From Escherichia coli (GTDB lineage Bacteria > Pseudomonadota > Gammaproteobacteria > Enterobacterales > Enterobacteriaceae), in the NCBI RefSeq assembly GCF_044324875.1, contig NZ_CP172185.1: a stretch of 64,000 nt of DNA, one strand, 5' to 3'. Under the pieces are notes generated by a model, which was given only the letters and a program-made list of their open reading frames with translations, was not told the DNA's origin and made no database searches. Below are positions 1,861 to 34,239 of this stretch, in pieces. Every line of letters begins with the position of its first letter. The stretch's first letter is position 1. A program made the translations under genes and the position numbers.

Positions 1861-2529
1861 TTAAAACGTCACGCGCAGTTCTTGCGGTTTTTTGCCAGTG
1901 ACCACGTACTTCGTCTCTTTGATATGCAAAATGGCAGATTTAGCCTGGTATTTCGGCCGCGCCATTTGATCGTTGAGGGTCGGCACCGGTTGTGGAGACT
2001 CACGCTTTGCATAACGCGCGGCGTTTTTGCCAATCTGACGATAAGTTTCCAGCGTCAACAAAGGCGCTTGAGGGAATAGTTCCAGGTTAGACAAGGGAGG
2101 AAGACCCTGCTGGTGGATAACCGTTGTGCCTTTCGACTGAATACCGATAGCAATACCTGAACCACTAAGACGATCGCCTTCGACTGCTACGAATGCGACA
2201 TCGGACGATTTAAAGCAGCGAATCACACGGGCTTTAATGCCTTCTTCTTCGATACCAGCAATCACTTCGCGCAAGATGTTTTTATGCGGAATACCGATGA
2301 TATTGACGGTTTGCGCCAGGCCGAACGCCGGGCCTACAGCAATAATGACTTCATCTTGCTGAGTGCCTTGTTGGGCTTCGCCAATTTCGGTCAGAAAAGT
2401 TCCGGTATCTGGCGCGGAAGAGACAGTTGCACAGGCAGGTGCGCGAAATGAAACGGGCTTGTCGCTGGTTTGCATTTCTGCCAGCACGTCTTCGATAATC
2501 TGACGCAGTAATTTTTCGTTAATTTCCAT
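1861..2529 (-). CDS. pduD: Propanediol dehydratase medium subunit
   Basis: 222 aa ORF starting [16 protein letters not shown]..., PduD-like; between pduC and pduE. Confidence 0.85.
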
Positions 2530-12234: not shown

Positions 12235-12310
12235 TGGCTCCTCTGACTGGACTCGAACCAGTGACATACGGATTAACAGTCCGCCGTTCTACCGACTGAA
12301 CTACAGAGGA
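12235..12310 (-). tRNA. asnV: tRNA-Asn (anticodon GUU)
   Basis: Reverse complement reads TCCTCTGTAGTTCAGTCGGTAGAACGGCGGACTGTTAATCCG...GGTTCGAGTCCAGTCAGAGGAGCCA, the E. coli tRNA-Asn sequence; gene name assigned by position. Confidence 0.95.
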
Positions 12311-12635
12311 ATCGTGTGAACGGGGCGCATATTAATGGCAGTGCATGGTGATGTCAAAGGGTGAAATGCATTTTTTTGTTTGTTTGCTGTCAATTTCAAC
12401 AAAGTGGTGAGCTTTCAATCTTATTGGTAATGAACCATCGTGGTGCATACCCTCCTTTTATGGGGCAGGGGAACGCGACAGCTGATAAAAAGAGCCAATG
12501 ACGAACCTATCATAATCTCTTATTTGACAGTTGGTTAGCTTGTACATCAACGCCAAAATAAAACTGGCAAGCATCTTGCAATCTGGTTGTAAGTAATGGC
12601 GGCACTTGGGCCGATTCTTATAAACCGGAGGCAAC

Positions 12636-13553
12636 ATGAACTTCAGACGCCTGAAATACTTCGTAAAAATTGTAGATATTGGTAGCCTGACCCAGGCTGC
12701 TGAAGTATTGCATATCGCACAACCAGCGCTCAGTCAGCAGGTTGCCACACTGGAAGGTGAGTTAAATCAACAGCTTTTGATTCGCACAAAACGGGGCGTT
12801 ACGCCAACTGACGCCGGAAAAATTCTCTATACCCATGCGCGGGCCATTTTACGTCAGTGTGAGCAGGCCCAACTGGCGGTGCATAACGTTGGTCAGGCAT
12901 TATCGGGGCAAGTCTCGATTGGCTTTGCGCCAGGAACCGCTGCGTCATCCATCACCATGCCCTTATTACAGGCGGTTCGCGCTGAATTCCCGGAGGTCGT
13001 TATCTATCTTCATGAAAATAGCGGTGCAGTGCTTAACGAAAAACTGATAAATCACCAACTCGATATGGCGGTGATTTATGAGCATTCCCCTGTGGCTGGT
13101 GTATCCAGTCAGGCTTTACTGAAAGAAGATCTTTTTCTGGTAGGAACTCAAGATTGCCCGGGGCAAAGCGTTGATGTTAATGCTATTGCGCAAATGAACC
13201 TCTTTCTCCCCAGTGATTACAGTGCTATTAGACTTCGTGTTGATGAGGCTTTTTCCCTACGGCGACTCACGGCAAAAGTCATTGGTGAAATTGAGTCTAT
13301 TGCCACGCTTACCGCAGCGATTGCCAGCGGCATGGGCGTTGCAGTATTACCCGAATCGGCCGCGCGTTCGTTATGTGGCGCAGTAAATGGGTGGATGTCA
13401 CGCATTACCACTCCTTCCATGAGTCTCTCTTTGTCATTAAATTTACCCGCCAGAGCGAACTTATCGCCACAGGCACAGGCAGTGAAAGAGTTGTTAATGT
13501 CAGTGATGAGTTCTCCAGTGATGGAAAAAAGGCAGTGGCAATTGGTGAGCTAA
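12636..13553 (+). CDS. nac: LysR-family nitrogen assimilation control protein
   Basis: 305 aa ORF with N-terminal LysR HTH (MNFRRLKYFVKIVDIGSLTQAAEVLHIAQPALSQQV...). Confidence 0.9.
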   Translation: MNFRRLKYFVKIVDIGSLTQAAEVLHIAQPALSQQVATLEGELNQQLLIRTKRGVTPTDAGKILYTHARAILRQCEQAQLAVHNVGQALSGQVSIGFAPGTAASSITMPLLQAVRAEFPEVVIYLHENSGAVLNEKLINHQLDMAVIYEHSPVAGVSSQALLKEDLFLVGTQDCPGQSVDVNAIAQMNLFLPSDYSAIRLRVDEAFSLRRLTAKVIGEIESIATLTAAIASGMGVAVLPESAARSLCGAVNGWMSRITTPSMSLSLSLNLPARANLSPQAQAVKELLMSVMSSPVMEKRQWQLVS

Positions 13554-13654
13554 GCGTTATATCGGGATGGAATAAGATGCGGGTTTTTATTATTTGTTAT
13601 GCCGGGCATTAGACTTTAACAATAACGGGATATCTGAACTGCCCGGAGTTTACC

Positions 13655-14605
13655 GTGAATTTCCAACAACTAAAGATAATCCGCGAGGCTGCACGTCAGG
13701 ATTACAACCTGACAGAGGTTGCGAATATGCTTTTTACCTCACAGTCAGGCGTCAGCCGTCACATTCGGGAACTGGAGGATGAACTTGGCATCGAAATATT
13801 TGTTCGACGAGGTAAGCGACTGCTGGGCATGACTGAACCGGGCAAAGCATTACTGGTCATTGCAGAACGCATTCTTAATGAAGCCAGTAATGTTCGTCGG
13901 CTTGCAGACCTGTTTACCAACGATACGTCTGGCGTTCTCACTATTGCAACGACGCATACTCAGGCACGTTATAGCTTGCCTGAGGTCATTAAAGCTTTTC
14001 GCGAACTTTTCCCGGAGGTTCGGCTGGAGCTAATCCAGGGTACGCCACAGGAAATTGCGACGTTGTTGCAAAATGGCGAAGCTGATATTGGTATCGCCAG
14101 CGAGCGTTTGAGTAATGACCCGCAGCTCGTCGCCTTCCCGTGGTTTCGTTGGCACCATAGTTTGCTTGTTCCACTCGATCATCCCTTGACGCAAATTACA
14201 CCGTTGACGCTGGAATCAATAGTGAAGTGGCCGTTAATCACTTACCGACAGGGGATTACGGGGCGCTCACGTATTGATGACGCATTTGCCCGCAAAGGTT
14301 TGCTGGCAGATATTGTATTAAGTGCGCAGGATTCTGATGTCATTAAAACCTATGTTGCTCTTGGGCTGGGGATTGGATTAGTTGCCGAACAATCCAGCGG
14401 CGAACAAGAGGAAGAGAATTTAATCCGTCTGGATACGCGGCATCTTTTCGATGCCAATACTGTATGGTTGGGACTGAAGCGAGGGCAACTTCAACGTAAC
14501 TATGTCTGGCGCTTTCTGGAACTTTGTAATGCAGGACTGTCAGTTGAGGATATCAAGCGCCAGGTGATGGAGAACAGTGAAGAGGAAATTGATTATCAGA
14601 TATAG
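13655..14605 (+). CDS. cbl: LysR-family regulator Cbl
   Basis: 316 aa ORF MNFQQLKIIREAARQDYNLTEVANMLFTSQSGVSRHIRELE...; CysB-like, adjacent to nac as in E. coli. Confidence 0.9.
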   Translation: MNFQQLKIIREAARQDYNLTEVANMLFTSQSGVSRHIRELEDELGIEIFVRRGKRLLGMTEPGKALLVIAERILNEASNVRRLADLFTNDTSGVLTIATTHTQARYSLPEVIKAFRELFPEVRLELIQGTPQEIATLLQNGEADIGIASERLSNDPQLVAFPWFRWHHSLLVPLDHPLTQITPLTLESIVKWPLITYRQGITGRSRIDDAFARKGLLADIVLSAQDSDVIKTYVALGLGIGLVAEQSSGEQEEENLIRLDTRHLFDANTVWLGLKRGQLQRNYVWRFLELCNAGLSVEDIKRQVMENSEEEIDYQI

Positions 14606-14606
14606 C

Positions 14607-14634
14607 AAAAAGCCCGCTATAAAAGCGGGCTTTT
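14607..14634. terminator. Intrinsic terminator hairpin after cbl
   Basis: AAAAAGCCCGC-TATAAA-GCGGGCTTTT immediately after the cbl stop. Confidence 0.6.
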
Positions 14635-14642
14635 CAGAAATT

Positions 14643-14718
14643 TGGCTCCTCTGACTGGACTCGAACCAGTGACATACGGATTAACAGTCCGCCGTTCTAC
14701 CGACTGAACTACAGAGGA
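14643..14718 (-). tRNA. asnU: tRNA-Asn (anticodon GUU)
   Basis: Same 76-nt tRNA-Asn sequence on the minus strand. Confidence 0.95.
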
Positions 14719-14878
14719 ATCGCTGTTGAGGCACATCTTAACGGCGAAAAATCTTTTGTCAAACCCGATTTTTAAATTTCCCAACTGTTTGCCGTTTCTA
14801 TCAACAGTTTGTTGCATTTGCAGACAATTTGTTGGCGAAAATCTTTGCAGCTTTGCTGATTCTCCCTCATTATTTGAA

Positions 14879-16366
14879 ATGTGGTTTCACTTTCTGCAAT
14901 TAAGGTCGGCTTTGAATATCTCCTCTGCTTTACGCCAGGTTGTTCACGGCACTCGCTGGCACGCCAAACGCAAGAGTTACAAAGTGTTGTTCTGGCGCGA
15001 GATAACCCCGCTTGCTGTTCCTATCTTCATGGAGAACGCCTGTGTCCTGTTGATGGGTGTCCTGAGCACTTTTCTGGTCAGCTGGCTGGGAAAAGATGCG
15101 ATGGCCGGCGTGGGATTGGCGGACAGCTTCAATATGGTCATTATGGCATTTTTTGCGGCTATCGATCTTGGTACCACTGTCGTTGTGGCATTTAGTCTCG
15201 GTAAGCGGGATCGACGACGAGCGAGGGTGGCGACGCGGCAGTCATTGGTGATCATGACGTTGTTTGCCGTGCTGTTGGCAACGCTTATTCATCATTTTGG
15301 CGAACAAATTATTGATTTCGTTGCGGGTGATGCCACGACAGAAGTTAAAGCACTGGCGTTGACTTATCTGGAGCTGACGGTACTCAGTTATCCAGCAGCT
15401 GCCATCACTTTGATTGGTAGTGGTGCACTTCGTGGTGCAGGGAATACGAAAATACCGCTACTGATTAACGGTAGCCTGAATATTCTTAATATTATTATTA
15501 GCGGCATATTGATTTACGGCCTTTTCTCCTGGCCGGGACTGGGATTTGTCGGGGCTGGGTTGGGTTTAACCATTTCTCGTTATATTGGCGCAGTGGCAAT
15601 TTTGTGGGTGCTGGCGATTGGTTTTAATCCTGCGCTAAGGATTTCGTTAAAGAGCTATTTTAAACCGCTGAATTTTAGCATTATCTGGGAAGTCATGGGG
15701 ATTGGTATTCCAGCAAGTGTCGAATCAGTATTATTTACCAGTGGTCGGTTATTAACCCAAATGTTCGTTGCCGGGATGGGGACCAGTGTTATTGCCGGAA
15801 ATTTTATCGCGTTTTCAATTGCGGCTCTTATCAACTTACCCGGAAGTGCGCTCGGCTCTGCTTCTACGATCATTACAGGCCGAAGGTTGGGAGTAGGGCA
15901 GATAGCGCAAGCAGAGATTCAGTTGCGGCATGTGTTCTGGCTGTCCACTCTTGGATTAACGGCCATCGCCTGGCTAACGGCTCCCTTTGCCGGGGTTATG
16001 GCATCGTTTTACACCCAGGATCCACAGGTTAAACATGTCGTTGTGATTCTGATTTGGCTAAATGCTTTATTTATGCCTATTTGGTCTGCCTCATGGGTGC
16101 TACCCGCTGGATTTAAGGGTGCTCGCGATGCACGTTACGCCATGTGGGTTTCTATGTTGAGCATGTGGGGTTGCCGGGTTGTAGTCGGTTATGTGCTGGG
16201 AATCATGCTTGGCTGGGGTGTGGTTGGTGTCTGGATGGGAATGTTTGCCGACTGGGCTGTGCGGGCCGTGCTGTTTTACTGGCGAATGGTTACTGGACGT
16301 TGGCTGTGGAAATATCCTCGACCTGAGCCGCAAAAGTGTGAAAAAAAGCCAGTTGTGTCGGAATAA
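14879..16366 (+). CDS. yeeO: MATE-family efflux transporter
   Basis: ORF track frame 14726..16366; start moved to an internal Met to give the roughly 495 aa I recall for YeeO; many transmembrane segments. Confidence 0.85.
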   Translation: MWFHFLQLRSALNISSALRQVVHGTRWHAKRKSYKVLFWREITPLAVPIFMENACVLLMGVLSTFLVSWLGKDAMAGVGLADSFNMVIMAFFAAIDLGTTVVVAFSLGKRDRRRARVATRQSLVIMTLFAVLLATLIHHFGEQIIDFVAGDATTEVKALALTYLELTVLSYPAAAITLIGSGALRGAGNTKIPLLINGSLNILNIIISGILIYGLFSWPGLGFVGAGLGLTISRYIGAVAILWVLAIGFNPALRISLKSYFKPLNFSIIWEVMGIGIPASVESVLFTSGRLLTQMFVAGMGTSVIAGNFIAFSIAALINLPGSALGSASTIITGRRLGVGQIAQAEIQLRHVFWLSTLGLTAIAWLTAPFAGVMASFYTQDPQVKHVVVILIWLNALFMPIWSASWVLPAGFKGARDARYAMWVSMLSMWGCRVVVGYVLGIMLGWGVVGVWMGMFADWAVRAVLFYWRMVTGRWLWKYPRPEPQKCEKKPVVSE

Positions 16367-16466
16367 ACGACAAAGTGCAGATTATTTCAGCAAACGATTT
16401 CAAATTTAAAAAACAGGCTTTGACATTGTGGATGAGCGTCGCTAATATTCGCCTCGTTCTCACGAT

Positions 16467-16542
16467 TCCTCTGTAGTTCAGTCGGTAGAACGGCGGACTG
16501 TTAATCCGTATGTCACTGGTTCGAGTCCAGTCAGAGGAGCCA
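16467..16542 (+). tRNA. asnW: tRNA-Asn (anticodon GUU)
   Basis: Plus-strand TCCTCTGTAGTTCAGTCGGTAGAACGGCGGACTGTTAATCCGTATGTCACTGGTTCGAGTCCAGTCAGAGGAGCCA. Confidence 0.95.
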
Positions 16543-16603
16543 AATTTTAGTTTTGAGACATCTCTATGAGTCTCAAGACAGTTAAAAAATAAAAATTATT
16601 TTT

Positions 16604-16638
16604 ACCCGGTTACCTTGTAAAAAGTGACCGGGTTTTTT
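16604..16638 (+). terminator. Intrinsic terminator after asnW
   Basis: ACCCGGTTACCTTGTAAAAAGTGACCGGGTTTTTT: hairpin plus T-run. Confidence 0.55.
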
Positions 16639-16996
16639 GATTTCTGTGTTTCGTGCGCTTAATCGAGTCTCACGCTTCAGTGAGCAAATTGCCCCTCCCC
16701 AACAGACATCACGATTCGCAAGGTCAAAAACTCTGTTCCATGAAGTACCGTACAAAGACAAAGAGAAAAATGCCTTATGCGGGATGTCGCTATCGCGTCT
16801 TTATCGGGAAACTATGCGTAATTGCCACTTTGCCTTCTGTAATCAGAAAAAGAAGAACTGGAATTTTAATAAATATTATTTCTCTGGGAATGGGGGGTTT
16901 TTATAAGCAATATGACGAGTTGAATATTATATTTTTTATAAGGATTATATGAGATTAAAGAAATCTGCCATAAAGACAGATTTCTTTAAAATATAA

Positions 16997-17713
16997 TTAG
17001 AGATTTGCGACGTTATGATAAACTTTTTGAACATCGTCGTCATCTTCAAGGGCATCAACAAGCCCTTCAAAGATTTCTAAATCTTCTGGGGAAAGCTCAA
17101 CTTCAGATTGAGCAATCATTTCTAATTCTGTTGTTGAGAACTCAGTGATTCCAGCTGCTTTTAGAGCCGCGATTCCTTTATGAAGGTCAGTAGGTTCAGT
17201 ATAAATAACAATATTACCTTCTTCTTCAGTTACATCACGAACATCAACTTCAGCTTCAAGTAAAATTTCAAAAATATGGTCAGGGTCTGTTCCTTTAAAT
17301 ACAATCACACCCGTATTGTCAAACATATAGCTGACAGAGCCTGCCGCTCCGATATTGCCGCCTTTTTTATTGAAAATTGTGCGAACGTTAGCAATCGTAC
17401 GGTTAACATTTGAAGTCAATGTCTCAGCGATAATCATTGAGCCATTAGGACCAAAGCCTTCATAACGGCCCTGCACGAACGTTTCATCTCCGCCGCCTTT
17501 GGCTTTATCAATTGCTTTATCAATAACGTGCTTTGGAACTTGTGCCTGCTTTGCTCGTTCAATAACGAATTTTAAAGATGTGTTTAATTCTGGATCGGGT
17601 TCACCTTGTTTGGCAGCGGCATAGATTTCTACACCGAATTTTGCATAAATTTTAGACGTCGCACCGTCTTTAGCCGTTTTTTTAGCAACAATATTGGCCC
17701 ATTTACGTCCCAC
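16997..17713 (-). CDS. yeeN: YebC/PmpR-family transcriptional regulator
   Basis: 238 aa [30 protein letters not shown]..., the conserved YebC-family N-terminus. Confidence 0.9.
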
Positions 17714-18054
17714 TGGAATGATCTCCTCGAAAATTTATTTACATTACTGGTAAATCGTTAACATGTGTTAATTCGGCATATTATATCATAACAGGAAAAA
17801 TCTCGTCTATTAGAAATAAAAATATTCTAAAGCCATAATATTATATTTAATCTCATAAAAACTAATGTTGTTGGCGGGATTTTTTATAATTGTGTTTTGA
17901 AAGCATACTTGCTTATAATATGTGGAAATCATTAAGGCTATAATAAAACTCGTATCCGCCCCAGGAAGCAAACAGCCTGCTTTATTGCAGGCTATTTGCT
18001 GGATGACTTACTAAATCCTTCACATCTATTCCTGATAAAAAGGAACAGAACTTA

Positions 18055-19509
18055 TTACCGGAACGGCGGCTCATTAAATGTTCGTAATTTACGTGAATGC
18101 AGTCGGTCGCCTTCTGCGCGCAGCAAATCGATCGCCCGAATGCCAATTTGCAGGTGTTCGGAAATAGCGCCTTCATAAAAACGGTTAGCCTGACCGGGAA
18201 GTTTAATCTCACCATGCAACGGTTTATCTGAAACACACAGTAGTGTCCCGTATGGCACGCGGAAACGATATCCTTGCGCGGCAATGGTTGCACTTTCCAT
18301 ATCAATTGCTACGGCCCGGCTTAAGTTAAAACGAAGTGCAGAAGCTGAGTAACGTAATTCCCAGTTCCTGTCATCTGTGGTTACCACAGTGCCAGTACGT
18401 AGCCGCTGTTTAACTTCCTCACCGGGCCTGCCGCTGACTAACTTGGTAGCGTCATAAAGCGCACGTTGCACTTCAGCAATGCTCGGAATAGGAATATCGG
18501 GCGGCAGTACCGCATCAAGAACGTGGTCATCGCGTAAATAAGCGTGTGCAAGTACATAATCTCCAATGGCCTGGCTTTCACGTAAGCCACCACAGTGACC
18601 AATCATCAACCAGACATCCGGGCGTAGCACCGCCAGATGATCGCAGATGGTTTTAGCATTTGACGGTCCCACGCCAATATTCACCAGAGTAATACCCTGA
18701 CCATCGGCGGTAATTAAATGCCATGCTGGCATCTGGTGTTTTTTCCATGCAAGGTCGGAAATGGCTTCTTCTGGCGCTTCGGTTTCGGCGGTGATCCAGT
18801 TCCCGCCAGCACAAGAAAGGGCAATGTAGGGACTATCAGGGTCGAGGATCTGGCTGCATCCCCAACGAACGAATTCATCCACATAACGTGTGTAGTTGGT
18901 AAACAAGACGAACGGCTGAAAATGTTCAACTGGCGTACCGGTATAATGGCGCAACCGCGCGAGGGAAAAATCGACGCGGCGCGCATCAAAATGCGATAGC
19001 GGGGAGAATTCAGTTGGATGATAAATGCCGTCTGCAGTTTCATCGCCAATTTGCGCCAGTTCTGTTGTCGGGAAATAGCGAGTTAACCCAGCGCTCATTG
19101 AGCGATCAAGTGTCAATTCAGAGCCATCGATGACATAAGGATAAGGGATTTCATGCTGCGAGGGTTGCACCGAGATATGCGCACCATAATCCTGATACAG
19201 CAACGTAAGTTGTTCATTGAGATACGAACGAAAGAGAGTAGGGCGAGTAATCGTGGTGGTGTAGCTGCCTGCGTGGGTAAAACGACCAAATGCGCGCGTT
19301 TTGGGGGGATTGGTTGTGCTACCGTCCCAGGTTACGGTCAGTGATGGATAGACAAAAAGACCTTGTTTGCGGGCGTTTTCATCAGGTAATTCGCCACTTG
19401 TAATATATTTGCCAATGGCGTTGCGTAATGCGACTACAGATTGCTCATACAGCGCGTCGAGTTTATCCAGTGCCTGAGCTGGGGTCAGACCGGAGCCCTT
19501 ATTATTCAT
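18055..19509 (-). CDS. amn: AMP nucleosidase
   Basis: ORF track frame 18055..19614; start moved to internal MNNKGSGLTPAQALDKL... giving 484 aa as I recall for Amn. Confidence 0.9.
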   Translation of the reverse strand: MNNKGSGLTPAQALDKLDALYEQSVVALRNAIGKYITSGELPDENARKQGLFVYPSLTVTWDGSTTNPPKTRAFGRFTHAGSYTTTITRPTLFRSYLNEQLTLLYQDYGAHISVQPSQHEIPYPYVIDGSELTLDRSMSAGLTRYFPTTELAQIGDETADGIYHPTEFSPLSHFDARRVDFSLARLRHYTGTPVEHFQPFVLFTNYTRYVDEFVRWGCSQILDPDSPYIALSCAGGNWITAETEAPEEAISDLAWKKHQMPAWHLITADGQGITLVNIGVGPSNAKTICDHLAVLRPDVWLMIGHCGGLRESQAIGDYVLAHAYLRDDHVLDAVLPPDIPIPSIAEVQRALYDATKLVSGRPGEEVKQRLRTGTVVTTDDRNWELRYSASALRFNLSRAVAIDMESATIAAQGYRFRVPYGTLLCVSDKPLHGEIKLPGQANRFYEGAISEHLQIGIRAIDLLRAEGDRLHSRKLRTFNEPPFR

Positions 19510-19610
19510 GTGTGTCTCCTGTTCCATACAATTACCGCACATCCGATAGTATGTCACAGAAATGTGAAACAAAAGTGTAAGGCGAAGATCGGATGATCTT
19601 CGCCAGACTA

Positions 19611-20927
19611 TCAAGCGCGTAGATTATCTTTCATCAACAAAGCGGTCATTGCGGAAATCAGGCATCCAGCCAGCAAATAAATGGCGACGCTATGCCAGTT
19701 CCCGGCAAAGTAAGTGATGAGTGCAGCGGCAATAAAAGGTGTAAATCCACCGCCAACCACACTGGCAACCTGATAACCGACTCCTGCACCACTATAGCGA
19801 TAACTGGCACCAAACATTTCGGTAAACATCGGTTGTTGCACACACACCACCATGTCATGCGCAATGTTTGCCAGCATTATGGAGAAGAAAACTATCCAGA
19901 AAATAGATTGTGTTTCAAGCGCCATAAAGAAAGGAAATGCGCTCAACGTTCCGATTAACGCGCCTGTGATATAAACCCTGCGGCGACCAAAACGATCGGC
20001 AAGCCAGGCAAAACAGGGAATGGTCAGGCAGCTTAATCCACCTACCAGCAAACCAATATTAAGGAAAAGTTCGCGCGGTAACCCCATATTCTGGGTTGAA
20101 TAATTAAGTGCGAAGGCGGTAACGATGTACATCGTCAGCAACTCGCACAGTCGTAGCGCAATAATCTTCAGGAAAGCACCGGGATGTCGTAATAGTGCTT
20201 CGATAACCGGAATGCGTTTTTTCGCGGCCGCTTGATTATGTTGCTGTTGTTCGAATTCCGCGGACTCCTCCATGCCATTACGCACCCACAATGCTCCCAG
20301 TACCAGTACGATGCTAAACAGGAAAGGAATGCGCCAGCCCCAGCTTAAAAACTGTTCGTCAGTCGTCATCATACTGATCAATGAAACCAGTCCAGTTGAA
20401 AGCAGTAAACCTACACCGTAGCCAACTTGTACACCGCTACTGTAAAAGGCTTTTTTATTTTTCGGTGCACTTTCAACGGAAAGTAACGCTGCGCCTCCCC
20501 ATTCGCCGCCGACGGCAAATCCCTGTATGGCACGCAGCGTCACCAGTAAAATGGGGGCCCACCACCCAATGGTCGAGAAGGAAGGAAGAATACCAATCAA
20601 GGCTGTCGCGATGCCCATCATCCAGACGGTCAGCATTAACATGCGCTTACGTCCCAGCCGGTCGCCAAAGTGACCGAAAATGACACCGCCGAGCGGACGG
20701 AAAAGGAATCCGACGCCAAAGGTGGCAAATGCGGCGAGCGTTCCCATAGCCGGGCTTACTTGCGGGAAAAACTCGCGATTAAACACCAGTGCGGCGGTAA
20801 TGCCATAGAGTAAAAAATCATACCAGTCGACGACGGCACCAGCGAAACTGCCTAACGCAGCTCGTCGGGCGCGACTTAACGAAAGCGTCCCTTCATCGGG
20901 ACGAGTGGAGATGAGCGTGGAGTCCAT
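19611..20927 (-). CDS. shiA: Shikimate transporter (MFS)
   Basis: 438 aa ORF with 12 predicted transmembrane segments; size and sequence match ShiA. Confidence 0.9.
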   Translation of the reverse strand: MDSTLISTRPDEGTLSLSRARRAALGSFAGAVVDWYDFLLYGITAALVFNREFFPQVSPAMGTLAAFATFGVGFLFRPLGGVIFGHFGDRLGRKRMLMLTVWMMGIATALIGILPSFSTIGWWAPILLVTLRAIQGFAVGGEWGGAALLSVESAPKNKKAFYSSGVQVGYGVGLLLSTGLVSLISMMTTDEQFLSWGWRIPFLFSIVLVLGALWVRNGMEESAEFEQQQHNQAAAKKRIPVIEALLRHPGAFLKIIALRLCELLTMYIVTAFALNYSTQNMGLPRELFLNIGLLVGGLSCLTIPCFAWLADRFGRRRVYITGALIGTLSAFPFFMALETQSIFWIVFFSIMLANIAHDMVVCVQQPMFTEMFGASYRYSGAGVGYQVASVVGGGFTPFIAAALITYFAGNWHSVAIYLLAGCLISAMTALLMKDNLRA

Positions 20928-21241
20928 AATGATCCTGTTTGTACTGTCTTTTTATAATTAGTATGGAAAAGGTAACTCACATTGCCGTCGATCTATAAAC
21001 GAACCTTATGAGACTACCTCGACAGAGCGCATCTGCAAATGATTTTATGGCTGATTAACGGCAACATGAAAAATTCGCTGGAAGATGAAAGTACAGGAGT
21101 TGCTGGTGTTGTTTAAGGATTAAGCAGAGCACCCACAGGTTCGAGATATGAAACATAAAAGTCCGCATATGCACAAAATGGCACCCTGATGAGTCTGATA
21201 GACTGCATTGCATTATAACCAGTAGGGAGGCGAGGTTAATT

Positions 21242-22294
21242 ATGTTTTTAGCATCATTGTTGAGACGTATTGCATTTAGTTACTACGATTATAAAGCTAA
21301 TAATTTCAATATTGGAAAAACAGAGTTTGTTGTCATCCATATTCCCGATCAAATTGGCGATGCTATGGCCATCTTTCCAGTTATTCGGGCGCTTGAACTG
21401 CATAAAATTAAGCATCTTTTAATTGTTACTTCGACTATTAATTTAGAAGTCTTTAATGCGCTCAAACTTGAACAGACTAAATTAACATTAGTCACAATGA
21501 CTATGCAGGATCACGCAACATTAAAAGAAATAAAAGATTTAGCGAAGAACATAACACAGCAATACGGTACGCCGGATCTTTGTATAGAGGCGATGCGTAA
21601 AAAGAACCTGAAAACAATGTTATTTATCAGTCAGTTGAAAGCAAAAACGAATTTTCAGGTTGTCGGTTTAACCATGAAGTGCTATTCCCCTTTGTGTAAG
21701 ACTGCGTCCCGGATGGATCAGAATCTCCGGGCTCCCGTACCCATGACATGGGCATTTATGATGCGTGAGGCGGGTTTTCCAGCAGTCAGGCCAATATATG
21801 AATTGCCATTAAGCGAGGATGCACTCGATGAGGTGCGCGAGGAAATGCGATCGTTAGGATCTTACATTGCGCTTAATTTAGAAGGTAGCTCGCAGGAGCG
21901 TACATTTTCATTATCGATTGCAGAAAATCTAATAGCAAAAATTCAAAGTGAAACAGATATACCAATAGTGATCGTTCATGGACCCAAAGGGGAAGATAAA
22001 GCCAGGGAACTAGTGAATAGTTATAATAATGTCTACCGTTTATCCTTGTCACCCTCGATTAAACGTTCAGCAGCAATCATAAAAGATGCTTATATCGCAA
22101 TAACACCTGACACCTCAATATTACATATGGCAAGTGCCTATAATACCCCCGTTGTTGCAATTTATGCTGATTACAAAACGCGATGGCCCGCAATGGCCGA
22201 TGTCTCGGAGTCAGTCGTCGTTGGGCAAAAAATTGACAATATAAGTCTGGATGAATTCGCAAAGGCATTAAAAAGTGTTTTGGCGAGAATATGA
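21242..22294 (+). CDS. yeeL: Glycosyltransferase family 9 (heptosyltransferase-like) protein, intact
   Basis: 350 aa uninterrupted ORF between shiA and yeeJ, at the position of the yeeL pseudogene of K-12 (from memory). Confidence 0.7.
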   Translation: MFLASLLRRIAFSYYDYKANNFNIGKTEFVVIHIPDQIGDAMAIFPVIRALELHKIKHLLIVTSTINLEVFNALKLEQTKLTLVTMTMQDHATLKEIKDLAKNITQQYGTPDLCIEAMRKKNLKTMLFISQLKAKTNFQVVGLTMKCYSPLCKTASRMDQNLRAPVPMTWAFMMREAGFPAVRPIYELPLSEDALDEVREEMRSLGSYIALNLEGSSQERTFSLSIAENLIAKIQSETDIPIVIVHGPKGEDKARELVNSYNNVYRLSLSPSIKRSAAIIKDAYIAITPDTSILHMASAYNTPVVAIYADYKTRWPAMADVSESVVVGQKIDNISLDEFAKALKSVLARI

Positions 22295-22873
22295 GGCAGT
22301 ATTTATGCATATTAATGCCGATCTGTTATGAACGGTGGTGTCATCAATACTCTGTGGCTGGTCAATCATTACAGAAAGCCAGTCTTTGGAGCAAAGCTGT
22401 ACTCACCGGATACGATCATAGTCACATCGAACGCGATTCTGGCGGAACCAAAACATTGTAATGTATTTCACCATCATAAATAAGGCAATCTAAACTTTAA
22501 CTCCCGTTAACTGCCATACATTATTATGAGTGGCGCTGATGTAATTTGTAATAGTGAAATATGAATTAATGTTGTTTGTACGTCCTAACATATCTTCCTT
22601 CTTGATGTAATTAGCTAAACATTAACGTGATTTGACTACATAGCAACAATGGTAGCTATCAAAAATAGCTCATGTACTTCGTTTCCTGCTGGCATGGAAC
22701 AGGTGGTTATATCGTGTGTGAAAGCTTTTATAAAAAGTAAGGAGGCTCGACTATCTTTAAACTAACAGGGGGTATGGGAAAATGCAGGTATATTAATGGA
22801 GCGTTTGACAGCAAACGAATATAAAAGCAGAGCGCCCCGAATGGAGCACTCTGTAAGAAAATATAGCGAAAAA

Positions 22874-31489
<8,616 letters not shown>

Positions 31490-31801
31490 GCTTACCTTCC
31501 CTGAACGAGCTAACATAAATGCGCCCTTTCTAGCACAGCGAAAAAAAGTAAATCCTGATAGCAATATGATTGAAAATTAATAACTTTTCGTTAAGCAGTT
31601 TTGGGTGTGAGTTGCAAGGGGGAGACTACTGAATTACTCAAGTTTTATAATCGAGGGGAAAATGGTGATGGCGTCCATAGCAAAACGCCCTCAACCATTA
31701 AGGTCGAGGGCGCTTAAGATGTCAAAAACCCGCTATCCGTTAAAAAGCAATGCTCAACTAAGGTCAGTGACATTGGGCTAAAAAAGCGAATTTTTAGAAT
31801 T

Positions 31802-31877
31802 TGGCTCCTCTGACTGGACTCGAACCAGTGACATACGGATTAACAGTCCGCCGTTCTACCGACTGAACTACAGAGGA
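31802..31877 (-). tRNA. asnT: tRNA-Asn (anticodon GUU)
   Basis: Fourth copy of the identical 76-nt tRNA-Asn sequence, minus strand. Confidence 0.95.
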
Positions 31878-32867: not shown

Positions 32868-32957
32868 CGGAGAGATGCCGGAGCGGCTGAACGGACCGGT
32901 CTCGAAAACCGGAGTGGGGGCAACTCCACCGGGGGTTCAAATCCCCCTCTCTCCGCC
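32868..32957 (+). tRNA. serU: tRNA-Ser (anticodon CGA)
   Basis: GGAGAGATGCCGGAGCGGCTGAACGGACCGGTCTCGAAAACCGGAGTGGGGGCAACTCCACCGGGGGTTCAAATCCCCCTCTCTCCGCCA: long-variable-arm class II tRNA with anticodon CGA. Confidence 0.9.
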
Positions 32958-33002
32958 AAAATTCAATCACTTATACATCATTAAGTCAGTGACAAAAATC
33001 AC

Positions 33003-33038
33003 ACTTGGAATTACTTGGAATATTTTCTTGGAATATTT
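33003..33038. repeat. Three direct CTTGGAAT repeats next to the attachment site (candidate integrase arm-type sites)
   Basis: CTTGGAAT at about 33003, 33013 and 33026, with GGAATATTTT occurring twice; lies between the tRNA-Ser 3' end and the integrase 3' end. Confidence 0.35.
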
Positions 33039-34036
33039 TCAGGTAACGGGACATCAAGTGTTGGTGAAACTTTAACCTTCCGGTCATAGATTAGCACTTG
33101 CCCTTCGGTTTTGTGACCAGAGAAAAGTTGCTTATCCCGGCTGCTTCCTTCATAGTCTGAAATTCCTTTCGCCTTCAGATCATGAAAGGTGAAGTCGGTT
33201 AAAATACCTGAAACTTTGCCTGCGCGATTTCTTGCTTCTACCCACATTTCGTTAAAGCCTTTGTACATATATCGGTTGCCGTATTGATTGCTGATCACAT
33301 AGGCGGATTTTGGTAACTGTTTTGCTTTTTCGACCGCTGCCTGTAATCGTGGACTCCATGCTTTTATCTGTTTTTTCCCTGTTTTCCCTTGCTGGATAAA
33401 GATCCCGTCGTTTCCAATCTGCTCCCATTTCAGCGATAACACATCGGAAACCCTCGCTGCACACAGATAGGCAATTTCCATTGCGATAAAAACAGGAAGG
33501 GGTGCCACGCTTAATACTGCCTGGTATTCTTTGTCGGTTACATATCGTTCGCGGTTTTTGGCCTTGAATTTACTTACTCCTGCACATGGGTTAGCCTTCA
33601 CGTACCCTCGCTCATACCCCCAACTGTAAACACGGGACATACTGCTTTTTTCATGGTTGGCTTGCGTTTTACTCTGTTCCCCTCTTTTGTCCATGTATCG
33701 ACGGATGTGTTCTGGTTTTATGGAATCCGCTGGTACCTTACCGAATACGGCAAGCAACTTTTTTTGATGTTGCAGATAATCTTTTTGTGTTCTTGGACTA
33801 AGGTCACTGTAACAGGCGCTGGCGAGGAATTTTTCCCACAAGCGACCGAATGTCATTGCACGATCGCGATTATTTACAGTTTCCTCATACTTTTTCCATA
33901 AAGCAGCTAAACCATCCTTGATGGCGGTTAGTGTTACAGATTCTCTGGATGTTGGTTTCCATACATAACTATATTTATTTGGGTATACATTTGGAGGTAA
34001 TTTTTCGTGTTCAGGATTTTTCCTTCGTCTTCCCAT
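33011..34036 (-). CDS. int: Tyrosine recombinase (phage integrase)
   Basis: 341 aa ORF adjacent to the tRNA and reading toward it; C-terminal region has tyrosine-recombinase-like R...HxxR...Y spacing (…FTFHDLKAKGISDYEGS…HKTEGQVLIYDRK…). Confidence 0.85.
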   Translation of the reverse strand: MGRRRKNPEHEKLPPNVYPNKYSYVWKPTSRESVTLTAIKDGLAALWKKYEETVNNRDRAMTFGRLWEKFLASACYSDLSPRTQKDYLQHQKKLLAVFGKVPADSIKPEHIRRYMDKRGEQSKTQANHEKSSMSRVYSWGYERGYVKANPCAGVSKFKAKNRERYVTDKEYQAVLSVAPLPVFIAMEIAYLCAARVSDVLSLKWEQIGNDGIFIQQGKTGKKQIKAWSPRLQAAVEKAKQLPKSAYVISNQYGNRYMYKGFNEMWVEARNRAGKVSGILTDFTFHDLKAKGISDYEGSSRDKQLFSGHKTEGQVLIYDRKVKVSPTLDVPLPENIPRKYSK

Positions 34037-34239
34037 CAGATCGCACCAAAATTCGGCTCTACCTCGCGTGGTGGTAAAGTTTTATTGCAGGTAAATAGAT
34101 CCCGGCTGACAATCGGTTTGCCACTACGATTGGTATAGAACGGAAGCCCGTTTTCCATTAACCATTTTCGCTGGTGGCTTGCATATTTGCAGCCCGTTAA
34201 TATTAGCAATTCATCTTCGGTTAAAAATAAGCTGCTCAT
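34036..34239 (-). CDS. xis: Excisionase-like small DNA-binding protein
   Basis: 67 aa ORF immediately upstream of int with overlapping stop/start; size and position typical of Xis. Confidence 0.6.
   Translation of the reverse strand: MSSLFLTEDELLILTGCKYASHQRKWLMENGLPFYTNRSGKPIVSRDLFTCNKTLPPREVEPNFGAI

Follow-up and report, generated by a model that had tools for sequence, protein, structure and literature searches.

What are three short direct repeats doing where a serine tRNA gene adjoins the integrase gene of a prophage? The question arises in a 64,000-nt stretch of Escherichia coli DNA (contig NZ_CP172185.1; hereafter the window), where an earlier note, made from the letters of the DNA, had described triplicated direct repeats at an attachment-site boundary and had proposed that they are arm-type integrase-binding sites. 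We find this proposal very probably right: the three CTTGGAAT(A/T) repeats would be the P'1-P'2-P'3 arm-type sites to which the neighboring lambda-family integrase binds through its N-terminal domain, and the segment that holds them would be the attL P' arm of a lambdoid prophage inserted in serU.

An exact motif search returned CTTGGAAT three times across the whole 64-kb window, always on the plus strand, at 33004-33011, 33014-33021 and 33027-33034, which confirms the described triplet and gives start-to-start spacings of 10 and then 13 nt. The count itself is close to the chance expectation of 2.5 per 64 kb; the non-random part is that all three copies fall within 31 nt, a clustering whose probability, roughly estimated from the window-wide rate, is about 1e-5 or less. 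The earlier note had placed all three repeats between the tRNA-Ser 3' end and the integrase 3' end. This holds for the first copy, the only one outside the int coding sequence, although its 8-mer shares one base with the int stop codon (33011-33013); copies 2 and 3 lie inside the gene, within its last eight codons (...PENIPRKYSK*) and in differing reading frames. As candidate arm-type sites, all on the plus strand, the repeats read CTTGGAATT for P'1 (33004-33012, sharing 33011-33012 with the stop codon) and CTTGGAATA for both P'2 (33014-33022) and P'3 (33027-33035), the latter two within int codons.

Because the copies stand in different reading frames and one of them lies outside the open reading frame, the repeat is a feature of the DNA and not an amino-acid repeat. 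This bears directly on the idea that the constraint acts on protein or RNA, with the motif representing either a repeat in Int or a terminator or regulatory RNA for int or serU. The position of copies 2 and 3 within the coding sequence speaks in its favor, but the encoded tail of Int (residues 322–341) is predicted to be disordered and is fully changed between copy-number variants, the three P' sites of the related Klebsiella phage KpF5 all lie outside int, and a promoter and terminator scan found nothing at the repeats, including no terminator-like hairpin. We give this idea next to no credence.

We then considered where the repeats lie relative to the attachment site. ARAGORN identifies serU, encoding tRNA-Ser(CGA), at 32869-32958 on the plus strand, and alignment with the K-12 attB and with attR indicates that the gene has been regenerated in attL, its 5' part being chromosomal and its 3' part phage-derived. 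The window stops in tail genes, before attR, and the P-arm sites were read from other genomes that share the attL-int module, namely TUM1886 (locus L001), which is 99.9% identical over attL-int and in which the window coordinate equals the L001 coordinate plus 32690. The module, comprising the mtfA end, serU, int, an open reading frame with a DUF4224 domain and an exonuclease gene, is present in 1091 of 5426 complete E. coli genomes at ≥80% coverage. In TUM1886 the prophage is about 40 kb long and is bounded by a 62-nt direct repeat that runs from the anticodon stem to the CCA end of the tRNA (window 32897-32958, plus strand). The two copies of this identity block (L001 207-268 and 40533-40594) are 97% identical, and the distal one adjoins yodB. 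The serU gene is the insertion site of the O157:H7 prophage Sp14/CP-933U and of some Stx phages (PMC8190617, PMC8065619), and Sp14 sits between yodB and tRNA-Ser(cga) (PMC8190617).

The earlier note had named two checks on the attachment site, a second copy of the tRNA 3' end where the prophage stops on its far side and a comparison with an uninterrupted serU locus. The first is answered by the 62-nt repeat in the genomes that share the attL-int module, and the second by the empty K-12 locus, which defines attB. Where the note had looked for the core, probably in the last bases of the tRNA, is not borne out: the edge of the identity block and two nucleotide differences put the exchange farther 5'. 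The first base of the block is tRNA position 29, within the anticodon stem, and the start is identical in the attP of Citrobacter phage Chris1, KpF5 and Salmonella phage ST64B. When attL, attR and the empty K-12 locus are aligned, the phage P arm matches the chromosome from window position 32897 onward. To its right, the variable arm of the tRNA carries two substitutions (plus strand), G at 32916 and C at 32927, in attL, where attR and the K-12 attB have A and T, a compensatory change from an A-U to a G-C pair. All attLs examined carry the G/C form, whether they have 2, 3, 4 or 5 copies of the motif. Genome totals are 1178 for the G/C variant of the tRNA and 1151 for the P' arm, a comparison of counts and not a per-genome cross-table; a further 4246 genomes fall in the 95–99% identity band for the tRNA and are taken to have the A/T form of K-12. 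Given its presence in every attL examined and the agreement of these totals, the G/C version is phage-borne. Since the phage-borne substitutions lie to the right of the exchange point in attL, the crossover should fall within 32897-32915 (plus strand), and we infer strand exchange in the serU anticodon stem-loop, 43–61 nt upstream of the tRNA 3' end, together with the exact 7-bp overlap. The anticodon loop, CTCGAAA, occupies 32901-32907 and is flanked by the stem arms CGGT and ACCG, which would act as inverted core-type sites. Through the phage-supplied change at 32916 and 32927, lysogens (about 1178 genomes) therefore express a slightly altered tRNA-Ser(CGA).

The 50 kb of the TUM1886 locus contain CTTGGAAT six times, and all but one of these copies are no more than 130 nt from one or other att core: three at attL and two in the P arm at attR, one direct (40421, plus strand) and one inverted (40486, minus strand). 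The sixth belongs to a tail-fibre gene. Both arms of attP thus carry a motif that is distinct from the core, twice in the P arm and three times in the P' arm.

With tblastn we collected genuine phage genomes whose integrases are 47–61% identical to that of the window. The relatives are Chris1, KpF5, ST64B, ‘Stenotrophomonas’ phage BUCT708, Escherichia phage Evi, Pectobacterium phage ZF40 and phage mEp390. The attP of all seven contains a tRNA 3' fragment that begins at or in the anticodon stem, derived from serU in Chris1, KpF5 and ST64B, from tRNA-Ser(UGA) in BUCT708 and Evi, and from tRNA-Leu(UAA) in ZF40 and mEp390, where the identity was read by eye from the sequence. In an unbiased k-mer count over the eight attP regions, the 8-mers that ranked highest in each region included an arm motif specific to the phage. 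These motifs are CTTGGAATA in the present prophage, CTTGGTATA in Chris1 and Evi, TGAGAAAAT in KpF5 and ST64B, CTTAGAATA in BUCT708, TTCCTAATA in ZF40 and TTCGCCATT in mEp390. Measured from the center of the anticodon to the center of each site, most of the eight attPs have a direct P1 at −113 to −115, an inverted P2 at −50/−51 and direct P'1, P'2 and P'3 sites at about +104, +114 and +127, with P' spacings in the relatives of 10–11 and then 13 nt. The exceptions are ZF40, which shows just two clear P' copies at about +140 and +152; mEp390, whose P' copies lie at +131 to +162; Evi, in which P2 is not recognizable; and BUCT708, in which P1 is degenerate.

The motifs differ among these phages, and so do the N-terminal domains of their integrases, which diverge more than the remainder of the protein. 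KpF5 and ST64B have a common motif and N-domains that are 85% identical, and within the group of motifs of the form CTTrGwATA the N-domains are 40–53% identical. Motif similarity tracks N-domain similarity. Two side observations concern individual phages. In Evi (locus L016), unlike the other seven phages, the attP is inverted relative to int, and the P' cluster includes one additional motif copy in inverse orientation. BUCT708 (locus L015) has an integrase with 61% identity to that of E. coli, and the tRNA-Ser(UGA) 3' fragment in its attP matches that of Evi; for an integration module of this kind, Stenotrophomonas is an odd host to have on record.

Several phage genomes that had come up as possible sources of an attP were set aside. 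The two near-identical ‘phage’ sequences vB_EcoM-606R7 and vB_EcoS-689R5 are excised prophage predictions that retain mtfA and asnT, and the match of ev099 and mEp332 to the tRNA block is an attR-like junction with chromosomal DNA. In these two free phage genomes (ev099, L006 2306-2840; mEp332, L005 about 2300-2838), a 535-bp segment is 97% identical to the attR junction of the serU prophage and lies distant from the phages' own int. The segment includes the two CTTGGAAT copies of the P arm, then the tRNA block of 62 nt, then some 278 bp of the chromosome downstream of serU. It may well be a remnant left when a prophage excised aberrantly or when the phage recombined with a serU prophage resident in its host.

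In lambda, the attachment site is laid out as P1-H1-P2-H2-core-H'-P'1-P'2-P'3, with IHF-binding H sites between the arm sites and the core (PMC4880445). We searched the eight attPs for the IHF consensus WATCAANNNNTTR. By consensus match only, allowing 0–1 mismatch, sites occur at −91 in 7 of 8 phages, at −36 in 6 of 8 and at +56/+57 in 5 of 8. The last of these is represented in the window by ATTCAATCACTTA (32961-32973, plus strand), one mismatch from the consensus, a candidate H' between the core and P'1, and a match at this position is also found in Chris1, KpF5, ST64B and Evi. The order of candidate IHF and arm sites mirrors the lambda layout. A similar arrangement was noticed in the ‘empty’ K-12 attB flank just downstream of serU (L002 about 1900-1965, minus strand), where a perfect IHF consensus, TATCAATGACTTA, lies at +58 from the anticodon, matching H' of the phage attPs in position, and an arm-like CGTAGAATA lies at +111, matching their P'2. 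This chromosomal flank may be the relic of an ancient P' arm.

The int gene (33011-34036, minus strand, TAA stop at 33011-33013) encodes a 341-aa tyrosine integrase of the lambda family, as judged by Pfam (PF00589 and PF22022), phmmer, and AlphaFold and Foldseek. The catalytic domain is matched by PF00589 at E = 7.8e-12 and the central domain is matched as well. A phmmer comparison with lambda Int (1z1b, E = 9.5e-13) aligns the two proteins from residue 1, with a common MGRRR..LPPN.Y, and pairs R195, K218, H285, H308 and Y317 with lambda R212, K235, H308, H333 and Y342. Where lambda Int has R311, the arginine that closes the R-H-R triad (H-x-x-R), the window integrase has K288 (FHDLK; window 33173-33175). 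This lysine is invariant in all eight family members, among them phages known to be viable or to excise. At threshold, neither Pfam nor NCBIfam recognizes the N-terminal domain, the lambda arm-binding family PF09003 reaching 15.7 bits against a cut-off of 22 and covering residues 1–20 only. An AlphaFold model made from the eight family members predicts a beta-beta-beta-alpha domain at residues 17–59 (pLDDT 74–90) and a disordered segment at residues 322–341, which includes the repeat-encoded part. The best Foldseek matches to the model are full-length lambda Int (1z1b_A, E = 4e-16, 350 aligned columns), a result for the whole protein in which the N-domain was not compared alone. By its predicted fold, Int thus carries an extra, lambda-like N-terminal arm-DNA-binding domain.

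Immediately upstream, and overlapping the int start, lies a 67-aa open reading frame with a DUF4224 domain (34036-34239, minus strand; Pfam PF13986), a candidate excisionase, or recombination directionality factor. An open reading frame in the equivalent position is annotated as an excisionase in ST64B, ZF40 and mEp390. This neighbor raises the question of whether the motif is instead bound by another protein, be it a host factor or the DUF4224 excisionase. As int and the excisionase gene are inherited together, covariation of motif and protein alone cannot separate the two. Lambda-type excisionase sites are nevertheless confined to the P arm (PMC4880445), and here three of the five sites are in P', which makes Xis an unlikely binder; the layout of two plus three sites with intervening IHF-like sites is that of Int arm sites, and Int has an extra lambda-like N-terminal domain that needs such sites. 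Binding by a different protein is, in our estimation, very improbable.

Conserved geometry with differing motifs, the P-arm copies and a lambda-like Int are thus best read together as identifying the repeats as P' arm-type sites. Of this reading, the site architecture, its positional conservation with different motifs in relatives, and the lambda-Int-like predicted fold are direct observations. Its working would be as follows. The full attP would comprise five sites, P1 (direct) and P2 (inverted) in the P arm, which comes to lie at attR, and P'1-3 (direct, at +104, +114 and +127) beside int, and candidate IHF bending sites (about −91, −36 and +57) would separate these from the core. By analogy with lambda, Int molecules would bridge arm sites to the core for strand exchange, the core being the proposed serU anticodon stem-loop at 32897-32915. 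Because the phage carries its own 3' part of the tRNA, serU is regenerated after integration. Binding of Int to the candidate sites, and the participation of IHF and Xis, are what we infer from this arrangement.

The repeats also vary in number, and this variation supports a further explanation that has to be weighed. Tandem Repeats Finder reports a 13-nt unit, CTTGGAATATTTT, in 2.1 copies, corresponding to two identical 13-bp tandem units at 33014-33039 (plus strand) whose number differs among E. coli genomes. Among the 1151 genomes with the P' arm, about 1054 (~92%) have three copies of the motif, about 80 have four, including O157:H7 strains, one has two and at least one has five; named examples are N17 with two copies, O157:H7 TR01 with four and Z1323HEC0355 with five. 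Each step in copy number alters the C-terminal tail of Int completely. Loss of one 13-bp unit, for instance, yields an Int ending in ...PENIPSNSKCDFCH*, a form present in the single genome N17. The locus therefore shows the copy-number polymorphism of an identical unit between strains by which a simple tandem repeat, or VNTR, is recognized.

It could be argued from this that the repeats have no function and arose by slippage, as a small VNTR which tandem duplication of a 13-bp unit produced at the int 3' end and which matters solely by frameshifting the Int C-terminus. P'2 and P'3 do lie in the two identical 13-bp units, natural variants with 2, 3, 4 and 5 copies exist, and the NCBI annotation pipeline PGAP calls int ‘frameshifted’ in TUM1886 (L001 296-1346). 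The same sequence is called intact in other genomes, and the pseudogene label is an annotation artefact of the 13-bp unit polymorphism. Against the idea, a triplet with spacings of 10/11 and 13 nt lies equally far from the anticodon in Chris1, KpF5, ST64B, BUCT708 and Evi, where the motifs differ and the units are non-identical; two more copies occupy conserved P-arm positions some 40 kb away; and three copies dominate among the genomes. Slippage as the whole explanation therefore seems quite unlikely. A narrower version, in which the third copy arose as a recent frameshifting 13-bp duplication, was rejected as the origin of the triplet, as relatives have three sites and only 1 of 1151 genomes has two copies.

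Three sites are found at these positions in relatives whose units are non-identical, too. The triplet is therefore ancestral and very probably functional, and the proneness of the 13-bp unit to slippage explains why copy number drifts between 2 and 5 among E. coli genomes. Slippage accounts for the drift in number, not for the existence of the sites, and VNTR-type polymorphism is compatible with the arm-site explanation. The 13-bp unit might be a contingency locus, in which each unit gained or lost alters the P' site number as well as the C-terminal frame of Int. We regard this as unlikely; if true, such a locus would tune or lock the efficiency with which serU prophages integrate and excise in different E. 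coli lineages, for example in the four-copy O157:H7 Sp14/CP-933U.

How does this attachment site compare with known systems? The repeats belong to a thoroughly known class, and conceptually they are textbook lambda biology. The attP resembles that of lambda in its five sites, of which two belong to the P arm and three stand in tandem in P' beside the int 3' end, and in IHF-type sites, here candidates, between arm sites and core (PMC4880445). The integrase, going by its model, is likewise heterobivalent, as a small N-terminal domain precedes the domains for core binding and catalysis, and the candidate excisionase gene is likewise immediately upstream of int. Other features differ from lambda. 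The lambda arm consensus is C/AAGTCACTAT, to which the motif of this prophage bears no resemblance. The core lies in a tRNA anticodon loop, whereas the lambda attB is in the gal-bio intergenic region, and the P' sites are about 50 nt farther from the core than those of lambda because the 3' part of the tRNA intervenes. The two integrases are only about 20% identical, and the second arginine of the triad is replaced by lysine (K288).

Closer relatives are found among phages that use the same target. ST64B belongs to the same integrase family (its integrase Sb28 is 59% identical), its record notes similarity to the CP-933U integrase, and like Sp14/CP-933U it targets serU; its attP also has the same geometry. 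It differs from the window prophage in its arm motif, TGAGAAAA(A/T), and in its N-domain, which is only 32% identical. As for Sp14/CP-933U, O157:H7 genomes carry this very attL-int module, with four copies of the motif. In the literature searched, no published account was found of the arm sites described here or of those of ST64B or Sp14/CP-933U. With respect to the core, anticodon-centred attachment sites in tRNA genes are said to have been called class ‘A’ by Williams in 2002. The present site resembles this class, as treated by Islander, in its displaced 3' tDNA from anticodon stem to CCA and its regenerated tRNA (PMC4383910). Nothing essential differs, the exchange points here being placed by the identity boundary and the SNPs.

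What the analysis adds is a sequence-level attachment-site map, one that places the crossover region along with five candidate sites in the arms and three for IHF, for a very common prophage family found at serU in about 20% of complete E. coli genomes, including O157:H7 Sp14/CP-933U. It also shows that the group of tRNA-targeting integrases to which ST64B, KpF5, Chris1, ZF40, mEp390 and others belong largely keeps a lambda-like attP geometry and swaps the arm motif. This pattern of kept geometry and swapped motif would be useful for delimiting prophages and for engineering orthogonal integrases.

Finally, we note some features of the prophage and its surroundings. This exact prophage was found in no complete E. 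coli genome of the collection, and its late region likewise had no match there, the best reaching 94% identity over 77%. The best late-gene match proved to be a prophage at icd and not at serU. The late, structural region (window 39001-64000) is a mosaic whose best matches, at about 94% identity, include the APEC E12053 prophage at icd with sitABCD adjoining. On the other side of the attachment site, four tRNA-Asn genes (window 12235-31877) and a 2896-aa open reading frame on the minus strand (22874-31564) adjoin mtfA, where K-12 has the inverse-autotransporter adhesin gene yeeJ.
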